From positions 13,826,001 to 13,890,000 of the forward strand of contig OZ024746.1 in assembly GCA_964016885.1 (NCBI GenBank): 64,000 bases of DNA, read 5' to 3'. Below the pieces are notes generated by a model, which saw only the letters and a list, made by a program, of their open reading frames with translations, made no database searches and had not been told where the DNA came from. A program made the position numbers and the translations under genes. The DNA comes from Eledone cirrhosa (taxonomy: Eukaryota). The stretch's first letter is position 1; the number at the start of each line of letters is the position of its first letter. Positions 35,544 through 60,767 of this stretch are shown in pieces.

Positions 35544-35815
35544 ACGAAGGAAATGTGGTAAGGAACCAGGTGGACCATAACGCACCAAAGTACTCAATAC
35601 TTAGGGTAGTAGAGTGGGTAATAGGAACGAGTAGGACCCCGACGGCTGAGCTCAAGCCGTTTCGACGGCTAATTCTGGGTCCAGAATTAGCCGTCGAAAC
35701 GGCTTGAGCTCAGCCGTCGGGGTCCTACTCGTTCCTATTACCCACTCTACTACCCTAAGTATTGAGTACTCTAGTGCGTTATGGTCCACCTGGTATCTTA
35801 CCACACCCTCTTTGT
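35544..35815. mobile_element. Fold-back element, family A copy 1 (truncated HHR at the apex)
   Basis: ~135-bp arms around CTGG-GT-CCAG (35675-35684); right arm CGAAA-CGGCT-TGAGCTC-AGCCG-TC-GGGG is HHR stem III plus cleavage triplet; lies between (TA)n and (CA)n. Confidence 0.9.
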
Positions 35816-36385
35816 ACACACAGATACAGACACACACACACACACACACACACACACACACACACACACACACACACACACACACACACACACACACACA
35901 CACACACACACACACACACACACACACTTTGTTTGGAATCAACAAGGGAAATATTATTTAGTACATAATGTTAAATATAATGTATATTTATTTGGGTGAA
36001 TCTGTATGCCTTCCTATCTCGTGTTTACACGCCCAGTCAGACGATAGCCTTCGGTATTTTAATGAAATATACTTTTGCCGAGTATGGTATCAGAACCTTT
36101 CATTGGCTGAGGAATTGTGTGAATTGTTAAGTCGTGGTAACTCCAAACAGAATAGAAACATTGCTCAGGCGTAGAGGCAATCTTCTAGCACGTAATTAGT
36201 AAAAGTCTCGTCATACTTTCATGGAAAGGAATTTGAACCTCAAGCTTTCAGGGTTATATTTGCGCGCGCACACACACACACACACACACACACACACACA
36301 CACACACACACACACACACACACACACACACACACACACACACACATATATATACACATATACATATATATATATATATATATAT

Positions 36386-36576
36386 AAGTTTATCCCGGGT
36401 TCAATCGGGGGTAACCACAGTAAGTAAGGTACTCAATACAAAGCAGAGTATAAATATTTCATATAGAAAAGGCTTCTACAGGACTAGAACTATTTCATTC
36501 GGGAGAAATCATCAGGGCTTCCTCATGATTTCTCCTGAATGAAACAGTTCTAGTTCTGTAGAAGCCTTTTCCATAT
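36386..36576. mobile_element. Fold-back element with an HHR directly at the apex
   Basis: Arms 36461-36516 and 36521-36576; unpaired extension 36386-36460; (TA)n on both sides. Confidence 0.85.
36516..36566 (+). ncRNA. Type-I hammerhead motif (one core substitution in this arm)
   Basis: GGCUUC-CUcAUGA-UUUCUCCUGAAU-GAAA-CAG-UUCUAGUU-CUG-UA-GAAGCC; the mirror arm on the minus strand has intact CUGAUGA. Confidence 0.75.
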
Positions 36577-36602
36577 ATTATATATATGTGTATATATATA
36601 TA

Positions 36603-36982
36603 TTAGGGTGGCCCTTATTTTTCAACTTTCTAAAAGTTTAGCTCCACACCCTCAATTAACAAAAAACAATCCATGCAAAACTTTAGCTCAAGCGGACAAC
36701 TGTAAAGCGACCCTCACTGACTGTGAAATTTTGAAGTTTTCGCCCGGAAAGTCATTTTTTCAGATAACATTTTTTTATCTCTTATATAATTTTCTCTTAA
36801 ATTAAAAACTTGTTAAGATTTATTCTTGGAATTAAAAGGATAAGTGACAATAAATATAATGGGGAAGGCAACTTGCAAAGCTGTGGACAGAGCTCAGGTG
36901 TAGGGCAAACACCTATTTGTCGCTGGGGGAGCAGCACAATTTTAACTTTCGGAAAATTACCTATTGCTAAGGGCGACCCTAA
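36603..36982. mobile_element. ~380-bp MITE
   Basis: TA-TTAGGGTGGCCCTTA ... TAAGGGCGACCCTAA-TA terminal inverted repeats; superfamily uncertain. Confidence 0.7.
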
Positions 36983-56351: not shown

Positions 56352-57664
56352 ATAACATATACATGTACAAGATAGCCAAGATGATTGTAATGTATGATTT
56401 TAAGAAAGTAAATATCAAACTCTTTAGGATATCCAGTTACAATCTAGTTTCTCTACATTGCCTATAGAAACAATGTTATGGGCGAAATCGTCCCCACCTC
56501 CTTGTTTTCTACATTAGTTTATTAGATTATATGAAGTCTAACGAAGTGTTTGTCAATTATTAAATGTCTTATTCATTCGTTATTGCAACAATTTTCAATT
56601 AGATGGATTAAGCCAAAGAGACAATATATTTTCCCTCTGGATACCACTTCTTAGATTCTTCCGTAGACTGCATTCATCGATTTTTACTCGTTGCGTTACT
56701 CTTTTAACGAATACTGCTATTGCTAAATTACTCACGTGCAATCTTCACACATAACACACATAATAAAGACAAGGAAAAAGTAAACAGAAAAACAAAACAA
56801 AAAAAAACAAAACTCATCTTGTTTGTAATTTTAATTATGGAAAAGAGATTACATTGTTTAACTTGTATCTTTTACAGTATAGTTGTAAATATGATAAAGA
56901 AAATATGGATGTTATGCTGTGTATATATTTACATGACTAAATTGTGAATACTTTACATTCCGTAGGCAAGGGAAATATGTTGTATATTTACGAATTGTAA
57001 TTCTCTACTCATTCGAAATATACGGTTTATTTTTAGCCGAGTTAAAAACATGACATAAAATCGATTTGTTTTATTTTATCTTATTTTGCAGTTTACCAAG
57101 GATTAAATGGAACAACGTGTGAATGATTTCTTTTCTTTGAATTTAAGATGTATTAGATTACATGGAAAATATTTTTACAGAAAACTATGTACAAGTTTAA
57201 AATGGAAATAGAATGTTTCAAAAGAAATAAAAATGCAATAATAGTTTGCAAATATAATATATCTCAATCGGATTATGAGAAATGTAAATGACATTACATA
57301 ATATCAATAAAGTATGAGAGGCTATACAATTGTTTATTTGATAAAACTTTTTTTTTATGTAGGGGAAAGGCTAAAGGGGGATTAGAGTAGTATGAACTTG
57401 ACTTGTTCAAGTGGCATTTATTTCAGGATGTAACGAATTAAATAGCTATACTCTGGTATGTATGAAAAACATACGTACATATTCATTCACATGCACATAA
57501 ATACACACAGACACATACATACACACACATACACATATATATATATATATATGTGAGCATATATGTGTATATGTATATACATATATGTGTGAATGTATAT
57601 AAATATATGTGTGTAGACATATATACGTACACTCACACAACATGGAGTATTTTAACCCTACACA

Positions 57665-57787
57665 TGTATGTATGTATGTATGTATGTATGTATGTATGTA
57701 TGTATGTATGTATGTATGTATGTATGTATGTATGTATGTATGCGGGAGAGATGACCCCGGGAGAGATGACCCCGGGAGAGATGACCC
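57665..57787. repeat. (ATGT)n followed by 3 copies of the 15-bp unit CGGGAGAGATGACCC
   Basis: Directly visible. Confidence 0.92.
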
Positions 57788-60595
57788 CTTAGCCTTTGTC
57801 AAGGCAGAATTCTAGGAGAAGGAAAACTCTGATATAACACCTGCAACCCTGATGGTATCCAATGATGTTGACTTGTTCTTCTTTTTGGTAAATATCATCT
57901 TGGTTAAGAGAGTGGGACTGGCTTTGTGCAGTGCCTTTGCTCACTATAAAAGCTTCACGGCACAGGCATTGCTTTATATCTGGAGATCTCTCTGCACTTG
58001 TCGTCACATGGTACCATGGGCCCAGCACTATGTGTCAATAATTGTCACAAGTGTAGTGTTTGTACCAGAGTTTTCAAGTCGCTGGCTGGACTAAAAAGTC
58101 ACACTTGTTCAGCGCATCTGTAGGGGTTCTCCTACATGGATATAAAGTAGTGGCCGTACTCGAAAACGAGTTGGCAGCCACCATGCATATATAATATAAA
58201 TATATATATATATGTATTCTGTACAATATTATTATTTCCAATTTTACATATATATATACATATGTACACATTATCGTTGGGCTGTTGTCTCGCATGCTTG
58301 ACGGGTTTTGATTTTTATCCCACAGGATGTTTGAAAATCCTCTTCATGCCCGAGCAAACTTGGTGGAGTTGCTGATTTAGCTGTCGACGAAGCGACTATG
58401 CAACAGGTTGAACTGGGTTACATGTTACCAGCAGCGCTTGAGAGCACCAATAAATAGCTGCTGGCAATCTATCTAGGAAACGGAAAACTCTGAATATAAA
58501 TACTGAGGTCTACTGTTCATCAGATCCATGTTATACGTTGCACCAGCTGTTGCTATCAGTAGTACCAACAAGTGTGAATGGTCCCATAAAGCCATTACTA
58601 TTTTAAATTAGTCATTGCGTGGGTAGTCTAAAAAATTAACTCACTCCATTTTTTACCAACATTATCATGAAAGCCTCTTTTATGCTGACTGGTGGTGGGG
58701 CAACAGCGACAGGTAGAGGAAACTACTGCAAGTCCTTGATTGGTACTCAGCACTGAGGGTGGCCCAGAAGATGATGGCTGTTTAGCACAAAATATATGGG
58801 CAATTGTAATAACTAAAGCAGTCTATGGATAATTGTGAACAAACATAAGATTCAGTCTTGCTGTCGACATAAACCCAGTAATTGAACTCAGCAATAGTCG
58901 AAACTAATCGAACTATTCTTTTATTCTTCCCACAGAAAAAAACCTTGTGGTTTAACCACAGGCTGTGTTTACACAGAAAGGATGGATGTATACTGATAAA
59001 AATACGTTTGTAAACATATTCCTAACTTGTCTACCCTGTCATTTTGTCTTTATACATATGCATGCAAGTGGACAGATCCACTCAATATTTCAATATAAGC
59101 CTTCAATTCAAGAATATATATTGGTATATCCATGTGTTCCCTGTATAATAGTTTTCATCCGGTTTGTTGCTAAGTGGTTTTATTAAGACATTACAGAGGT
59201 AGGGTGTAGAAATGGAGATGGTTGTTAGTTTATATCACGCCCTAGTATTTCGCAGTAATGTATACGTCAATATTATAATGTTATTAACAATGTGGTCTTT
59301 TACTATGCTGATAGAGTTAATTATATCCACAACTTGCCGGAAATATAAATTGCTGATATAATAGATTTATAGAAAGTCTTAAATAAATATGCCGAAAATT
59401 GAATAAGATAAACGGACTTCCGTTGGTTTCGACAATGAGTGTTCTAGTTGTTCTATCGACCTACTCGTTAAATTAACGTGTAAGTGGCTGAGTATTCCAT
59501 AGAGTCGTGTACCCTTAACGTAATCTTCATGGAGAGTCAATGTGACAGTGTGTAACATGGTTGGTTCTTTAAATTACAGATAAATCCATCTGACAGGCTT
59601 TCCGAATGTCCAATTTTACTCTCAAAGCTTGGGTCGATTCGAGGGTATGGTAAAAGATAATTGGTCAAGACACCACACACAGAAACTGAACCCATAACCT
59701 AATAATTGTGATGCAAAGTTTACCATGCTGAGTCCATATTAATCGAATGATACACTCAAAGTACACGGAATTAATTTCTCCTTGATTAGTTACACAAGAT
59801 AAACAACAAAACAATGATGTTTAATATCAGAGAAAGCAAATAAAAAGAAACGATATCAACAAAGAATTAAAATTACCACCACTTTTTTGTCCCATTATTT
59901 CTCCCCTATATGTTTACTTACGGAGCAACATAACTTAACTCTTCTTCACTCTCAGACGAAGGAAGACCCGAAAAGTTAGTCTCGTCACTCTATATATCAA
60001 ATGATTTTATCGAACTCACTTATGAACTCTTCTATTGACTAATTGTTTTTAACACTAATCTTCATTGTTTTTTTTCTGATTCTAAAGTTTACCCAAAGAA
60101 GTAGATTATATGGAAATCTACAACGTCTATTATATTCTTGATATTTGGTAATTCCAAACTATTGCAGGCTTAGAATGCAATTTCACAGACGTTCAGACGC
60201 CAAACAAGATCTGTTAAGTAGAGTTTTGTAACATTTGTATAACCTTTTCTCCCCTTTAGCACCAATATCATCAATGTAGGTTGTCACTTCTCTATGAAGC
60301 CAACGTATCTCTATTAAGAACCATGATAAAGTAGATGACATATTGATCTATAATATACTCTCTATGAGGCCTCCAGTTCTCCCCTATTAACACTGGTTAC
60401 ACTCATCACATCATATATATATATAATTTATATAATATATACACACACACACACACACACACACACACACACACACACACACACACACACACACACACAC
60501 ACACACACACACACACACACACACGCGCACACACACACACACACACACACACACACACACACATATATATATATATATATATATATATATATATA

Positions 60596-60767
60596 ACGAA
60601 GGAAATGTGGTAAGGAACCAGTACTCAATACTTAGGGTAGTAGAGTGGGTAATAGGAACGAGTAGGACCCCGACGGCTGAGCTCAAGCCGTTTCGACGGC
60701 TAATTTAGTCCAGAATTAGCCGTCGAAACGGCTTGAGCTCAGCCGTCGGGGTCCTACTCGTTCCTAT
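60596..60767. mobile_element. Fold-back element, family A copy 3
   Basis: Apex TAATT-TAGTCCAG-AATTA (60701-60718); short right arm runs into (TA)n; ~21-bp deletion in the left extension relative to copy 1. Confidence 0.9.

Follow-up and report, generated by a model that had tools for sequence, protein, structure and literature searches.

The Hydra clade of Penelope-like elements (PLEs), exemplified by Hydra-1_Obim, is described as having one open reading frame (ORF) for a reverse transcriptase (RT) with a C-terminal GIY-YIG endonuclease, RW(K/R) and DKT motifs, a CxCX5C linker, CxxC and CxH motifs, and no CCHH (Craig et al., 2021, PMC8557442). Its members are generally shorter than 3 kb, target (TA)n, carry a canonical hammerhead ribozyme in the pseudo-long terminal repeat (pLTR), and are accompanied by an inverted 5′-truncated copy and a tail. 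Here, three palindromes are described from Eledone cirrhosa, in a stretch of 64,000 nucleotides (the window; positions 13826001-13890000 of contig OZ024746.1, within the 3.0 Gb animal assembly GCA_964016885.1). Judged from motifs and architecture, they are miniature, abortive insertions of a Hydra-clade PLE. They probably form when two RTs, priming at fixed internal sites close to the 5′ end of an uncleaved, likely capped mRNA, run off that end and their products are joined head to head.

The nearest biochemical precedent is PAc, a Poseidon element of Anolis, which nicks and extends both strands of AT-rich DNA from two internal sites on uncut RNA; these two RT starts define the tail, and a template truncated at its 5′ end gives a shorter product (Frangieh et al., 2024, PMC11167929). 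The Eledone family appears to share these features, except that the RT starts of PAc lie inside the ORF, whereas those of the Eledone family lie in the 5′ untranslated region. Inverted insertions and transcription start are not treated in the available text of the PAc paper. The origin of PLE tandem and inverted insertions is stated to be open by Craig et al. (2021, PMC8557442), and the in vitro work leaves it unexplained.

Like the Eledone family, Penelope of Adineta vaga (PMC3846280) and Drosophila virilis (PMC2377424) has head-to-head inverted pLTRs with junction palindromes, together with TATA-like or initiator (Inr)-like motifs or an internal promoter in the pLTR. Published work already covers, as such, tailed inverted PLE copies, promoters in the pLTR, and palindromes at junctions. 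The Penelope palindromes were attributed to an antisense template and self-priming; the Eledone data instead favor two sense-RNA complementary DNAs (cDNAs) that end at a promoter. Hammerheads of the Schistosoma Cercyon PLEs resemble those of Eledone in their U3-A8 covariation, long helix II, and opposite-strand pairs 100-700 bp apart, but the available account reports neither a promoter within the ribozyme nor a hot spot for the apex (PMC4209133). In L1 twin priming, both DNA ends prime and an extra G marks full-length 5′ junctions, as proposed here; the inverted parts of L1 abut with little overlap, whereas both Eledone arms copy the same 50-60 nt (PMC11702581). The literature searched, outside which lay most subscription papers and older PLE reviews, yielded no fixed apex at a start site, no hammerhead with an internal promoter, and no account of PLE inversions as products of twin run-off.

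Parent element and fixed 3′ ends

Element positions are numbered from the predicted hammerhead cut, with C17 as 0 (position 2989 of locus L035; window position 35718 in copy 1) and the next base as +1. L035 is a natural full-length copy: its inverted part comprises an arm of 830 bp and a fragment of the ORF, and these are followed by one pLTR, the ORF, and another pLTR that ends at +20 in (TA)n. The ORF is open for 718 amino acids from an ATG at +191 and contains RT and GIY-YIG endonuclease motifs (FDIESYY, YRDD, and VIY...YIG). Among 7998 candidates, 823 are homologues of its protein. Pfam gave no match for the L035 ORF, with weak RVT_1 and GIY-YIG matches on relatives only, and a PDB sequence search did not name the ORF either. 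The Hydra-clade RT motifs are present as LRWR (MRWK in relatives) and SDKTG, in which DKG is changed to DKT. The cysteine motifs are present as the CxCX5C linker CNCPDRSIC and as CNLC..E and N..CKH, with CxxC and CxH around E and N. CCHH is absent from the protein, whose GIY-YIG core is without a conserved cysteine pair. A partial pLTR tandem with an adjacent inverted 5′-truncated copy and a tail at one end occurs in L035, L031, L032, and L034, and longer inverted copies of the element contain the ORF. These motifs and the (TA)n targets match the definition of the clade, and the protein resembles Hydra proteins by eye.

Several features set the Eledone family apart from the published clade (PMC8557442). 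Its tail is 77 nt, compared with 30-40 nt, and its unit is at least 3.1 kb (the ribozyme-to-ribozyme distance in L035 is 3,118 bp despite a deletion). Its ribozymes have a U3-A8 core and ~37 nt between the proximal stem II strands, whereas in the Hydra ribozymes the core is CUGANGA and the loops are 3-10 nt long (26 of 26 rows in File S2). Most Eledone insertions are palindromes of ~200 bp with one fixed apex, a form not found described for the Hydra clade in the available text of that study. Unlike non-LTR retrozymes, defined by head-to-tail tandem units with a whole ribozyme each (bioRxiv 10.64898/2026.07.22.740005), the copies are head to head and without the core.

Genome-wide abundance was measured as exact sequence-pattern matches, with reversed patterns as the control. 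Across the genome, head-to-head pairs separated by 0-30 nt number 12,477, a lower bound given the exact matching; the control returned 0, and the count greatly exceeds chance. The arms have two fixed 3′ ends, a long one at +97 (30,257 matches) and a short one at +20 (26,572 matches), and 56,829 arm-end matches lie directly before TATA, as expected for a (TA)n target. By analogy, the two ends would correspond to the pair of internal RT starts known as the PLE 'tail' signature. Junctions and arms were sampled as the first-listed exact matches, nearly all from one contig (C1). One long and one short arm are joined in 58 of 63 junctions. For the first 100 long ends listed, a close partner arm is present in 70, none is seen in 22, and 8 extend far. 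The partner ends exactly at +20 in 62 of the 70 and, in 17, extends beyond the 5′ end of the long arm by 10 nt or more; therefore, neither arm is a plain copy of the other in those cases. Arms of the same palindrome differ by 1.4 mismatches per 51 nt and those of different palindromes by 4.4 (n=135, the fold-backs in register out of 164), in keeping with the earlier suggestion that both arms were copied from the same or a near-identical template.

The 5′ hot spot and the hammerhead

Intact ribozymes number 3,546 by exact pattern, compared with 59,027 matches of the 18-mer just 3′ of the apex. In the minimum free energy structure of L035:2885-3015, intact copies fold as a type I hammerhead with three stems. 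The 5′ strand of stem I (ACCCC/GGGGU) occupies -88 to -84, the core -83 to -77, and stem II, closed by an inner hairpin, -76 to -23. The core is YTGANAA in 56 of 59 intact copies, with position 7 free; as UUGANAA, it is a U3-A8 variant. The predicted fold energy is no better than that of shuffles (z -0.04). Across six copies, 93.5% of stem cells pair without any two-sided change, and covariation is uninformative. Loop III (L035:2970-2988) holds the palindrome TGAGCTCA, which could permit a dimeric ribozyme.

The window copies contain only the 3′ half of the ribozyme. A preliminary description of this DNA, made from the sequence alone, had located their apexes at the 5′ boundary or core of the ribozyme fold. 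This placement is off by ~45 nt because intact copies have the core at -83 to -77; the apex sits in the distal stem II hairpin, ~45 nt inside the fold. Similarly, ATGA before GTCCAG in copy 2 had been taken for a CUGAUGA remnant, but intact parents have TTTAGTCC or TTCAGTCC at that spot, which rules out such a reading of TGAGTCC. An Rfam scan of the window gave no hammerhead family among the matches listed (150 of 163), as expected because the window copies are without the core.

Plotted against the reconstructed hammerhead, apex positions are clustered rather than uniform. The ends of 100 long arms were surveyed after ten of 110 rows were dropped (loci chosen for an intact ribozyme, or unplaced). 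Of the 62 long arms reaching -30, 53 stop by -47. The end hazard is 7.2% per nt at -47 to -30, compared with 0.3% at +21 to +75 and 0.1-0.2% upstream. It is 0.1-0.7% per nt in most other intervals and 2.5% at 0 to +2. The arms ending at 0 to +2, 6 of 82 in one survey, hint at a second stop at the cut site, but another listing, with -2 ends about as often, did not confirm it, and GG microhomology confounds these ends. Among placed short arms, 54 of 74 also end at -47 to -30, and single-arm insertions without a mirror end at -40 as well. Arm ends peak at -40, -39, -36, and -34; a shoulder at -43 is partly tailing: T runs are longer than in any parent in 7 of 30 rows, and the parental CATTT is present in 1 of 30. 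This clustering supports the earlier proposal of a fixed template end ~40 nt upstream of the predicted cut. The arms also traverse the predicted cut, as in copy 1, and the template was therefore uncut there, as had been suggested. In four contig sets of unknown kind, the summed depth falls ~14-fold (X1) and ~18-fold (X4) from L035 bins 2940-2973 to 2906-2939, although the sets may stem from the very sample that was assembled and cannot reveal RNA ends. ORF-internal sequence precedes the -40/-39 ends of arms in L377 and L349, as if RT, on reaching the RNA 5′ end, had switched to an internal position.

The preliminary description favored an RT stop or a template end at this point. Stalling of RT in the distal stem II hairpin, followed by fold-back of the cDNA to copy itself, is an unlikely origin for the palindromes. 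Such snap-back is known for R2 (PMC11371274), self-priming has been proposed for PLE junction palindromes (PMC3846280), the arms are near-identical, and the apex coincides with the GGAUAAAU/AUUUAGUCC hairpin. However, RT passes stems I and III and proximal stem II with little loss, and the stability of the fold equals that of shuffles. Self-copying also accounts poorly for the 17 of 70 partner arms with sequence absent from the long arm, for L035, in which the +20 arm is ~5 kb compared with 0.8 kb, and for the single arms that also stop at -40. A second family, family B, stops elsewhere in its own ribozyme, yet at an equal distance from a TATA box. Run-off of two cDNAs fits the partner ends at +20, the longer partners, and the single arms better than a structural stop or the fold-back of one cDNA.

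Marks of a probable transcription start at -40

A(-40) lies within TTAGTC or TCAGTC, an Inr-like TYAGTC, and the one common variant retains the pyrimidine; TYAGTY is the fly initiator consensus (PMC6483594). A TATA-like box lies 29-32 nt before TAGT/CAGT in all 55 intact copies matched by pattern. The box is TATTTAAA in 40 of the 55, and this type has one mismatch to STATAWAWR. As a motif match to the fly consensus, position -40 thus has the RNA polymerase II core promoter arrangement of a TATA box ~30 nt upstream and an initiator.

The arms ending at -40 also carry an excess of G. The free base before A(-40) is G in 20 of 33 rows, 10 on long and 10 on short arms. With a stricter filter (no partner or local template), G precedes A(-40) in 14 of 19 rows, compared with 7 of 38 before G(-39) (Fisher p=9e-5); when -39, -36, and -34 are combined, the share is 15 of 54 (p=8e-4). 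Several junctions, copy 2 included, have the extra G on both arms simultaneously. In arms that end at -40 and are joined straight to (TA)n, G is found in 13 of 21, and in 34 of 66 by eye count. Parents have T or C at -41: a parental subfamily with G there was considered and rejected, as 98 of 100 listed non-T copies have C and 2 have G. At L1 5′ junctions, the extra G marks the mRNA cap (PMC11702581).

Family B, found in the window and at other loci, stops at the 5′ edge of its ribozyme, whereas the family described above (family A) stops inside stem II; the distance to the TATA box is shared. Its core is present in 31 arms, six of which were taken as parents by their TATA(A/C)ATA box. The A at -6 from the core lies 29-32 nt after the box in five of these six. 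None of the 25 other arms passes -8 from the core, and one of them, L399, is probably a seventh parent. A tblastn search upstream of the six parents found no ORF; family B is therefore PLE-like by architecture only. In the window, a family-B fold-back at 36461-36576 has the full CTGATGA hammerhead core within its arms.

A number of observations weigh against a start at A(-40). The promoter consensus derives from flies, the family-A box overlaps the search anchor (and stem II), and the family-B parents were selected by their box, so neither family is a blind test. The sampling is biased toward young copies. Exact -40 ends are only part of the total (6,412 with A, C, or G at -41, compared with 4,332 ends at -39 and 5,449 arms with T at -41), and -36 and -34 ends are about as common as -40 ends; trimming must therefore be invoked. 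Some arms extend to -44 to -47. The share of G at -36 (3/6) and -34 (5/10) is not significantly below that at -40. In the cleanest single-arm class, G outnumbers C 17 to 9 (p=0.08, eye count, with background G equal to C). The commonest -40 junction, TTC|AGTCC (~27 of 100 rows), has no G, and the extra G could stem from realignment to TTGAG elsewhere in the element. Finally, A(-40) is also the bulged base of the hairpin, and YAG at -41 to -39 resembles a splice acceptor.

A fixed 5′ end at -40 could arise by RNA processing rather than transcription initiation, through a nuclease acting at the bulged A or splicing at YAG, and this explains the hard end equally well. The TAG/CAG at -41 to -39 is preceded by a pyrimidine run, and the intron in the Penelope pLTR ends next to its ribozyme (PMC4209133). 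A spliced exon, however, would start at -38 with a constant leader, and the inserts have no common leader beyond G or TG. No spliced leader was found among 35 unpaired arms; 22 rows were flagged, mostly due to inverted arms in the comparison set. Processing predicts neither the TATA-like box at -29/-31 nor the family-B spacing, and it is quite unlikely as the source of the hot spot.

Proposed run-off pathway and the window copies

Palindrome tips are unstable, and some junction strings recur (5 and 4 of 59), but a pre-formed small palindrome spreading as a non-autonomous unit (like a miniature inverted-repeat transposable element or a retrozyme), or collapse of long inverted copies to the same tip after insertion, is very unlikely: the 59 fold-backs show 49 distinct junction strings, the recurring TTC|AGTCC is found in both subfamilies and its -40 end may belong to either arm, and unpaired arms end at the same place. 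The flanks of the three window copies, in (TA)n or (CA)n, differ, and the variety of junctions agrees with the earlier view that the copies are separate events.

In the preferred reading, run-off of two cDNAs, the element endonuclease would cut both strands of (TA)n, and each cut end would prime one cDNA, at +20 and +97, as shown in vitro for PAc. Transcription would start mainly at A(-40), and both cDNAs would run off the capped RNA 5′ end. The cap may template an extra base, a C added opposite it, often with A's too. Trimming of 0-10 nt, A-tailing, and microhomology or templated joining would then give the varied apexes. An mRNA started in the pLTR would be without the 5′ half of the ribozyme and so would not cut in cis; an RNA that starts at -40 without the core would explain the uncut template. 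Long copies would require a read-through transcript primed at its downstream pLTR, and arms that pass the site (~6-14%: 3,546/59,027; 9/62) would derive from read-through RNA. More tentatively, pLTR-started mRNA of PLEs may carry both RT starts near its capped 5′ end, so that the default product is a pair of 'strong-stop' cDNAs sealed head to head, with live copies arising only from read-through and, in the Eledone family, the start site within stem II itself switching the hammerhead off. Apex pile-ups would then map PLE start sites from genome sequence alone, and both the inverted repeats of PLEs and their need for partial tandems would be explained; this generalization is possible, with the balance leaning slightly against it.

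If the run-off pathway is correct, the source of inverted copies would be sense RNA primed twice rather than an antisense template. Some nine of every ten events would be dead ends, and promoter and ribozyme would share one sequence. The >12,000 natural junctions of this one family give a base-level record, with the prediction that RNA starts at A(-40). The pathway would also account for the near-perfect hairpins of 50-65 bp that number in the thousands in this genome and are possible sources of double-stranded RNA.

Table 1. Arms, apex insert, and predicted cleavage site of the three window palindromes
Feature	Window position	Strand	Description
Copy 1 long arm	35544..35678	-	Element +97 to -37 (hammerhead 3′ half and 77-nt tail); abuts (TA)n
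Copy 1 second arm	35679..35815	+	Element -39 to +87, then 10 nt like the tail end of another subfamily
Predicted hammerhead cut (after C17)	35718..35719	+	Position via alignment to intact copy L035
Copy 2 long arm	52244..52381	-	Element +97 to -40; AAAT subfamily
Copy 2 apex insert CATG	52382..52385	.	One non-parental G before A(-40) per arm, plus AT
Copy 2 short arm	52386..52446	+	Element -40 to +20, at the fixed short end
Copy 3 long arm	60596..60705	-	Element +97 to -33; 21-bp internal deletion near 60621
Copy 3 short arm	60703..60767	+	Element -44 to +20; abuts (TA)n

The three head-to-head fold-backs lie where they had been described, and their arm 5′ ends all fall inside 11 nt (Table 1). 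The mirror lengths of 63 and 54 bp given for copies 2 and 3 hold, while that of copy 1 is 125 bp, 10 less than the ~135 reported. Copy 1 is an atypical long/long insertion. The distal part of its right arm (35771-35815) has variants known from the tail of another subfamily, and the arms may stem from separate RNAs or have been altered by later conversion. The G's in the copy 2 apex are likely cap-derived rather than a core remnant. Of the variants thought private to copy 2, AAATAGCC (60 of 164 fold-backs) and TCATACTTTT (19 of 135) are mostly subfamily marks; only TTTAGCTCTGCC, present in both arms, is private (1 of 135). The copy 3 arms overlap by 3 nt (ATT).

Other fold-backs are found in the window. 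One of a third family, in (TA)n at 44232-44374, has the hammerhead cores CTGAAGA/CTGAGGA, an apex just 5′ of stem I, and a right-arm tail of ~60 nt; similar copies occur in L078 and L371. A fourth family is represented by an interrupted fold-back at 38172-38216 plus ~90 bp on each side, and its relatives in L141, L401, and L485 show a short stem II and a hammerhead-like core, TTGAGAA/CTGAGAA. A perfect 124-bp fold-back, in which no hammerhead was noticed, lies in (TA)n at 63485-63732 and has longer relatives in L204 and L377. A 35-bp fold-back is present at 61682-61752, and a 38-bp satellite of 470 copies (95% matches) spans 15012-32865.

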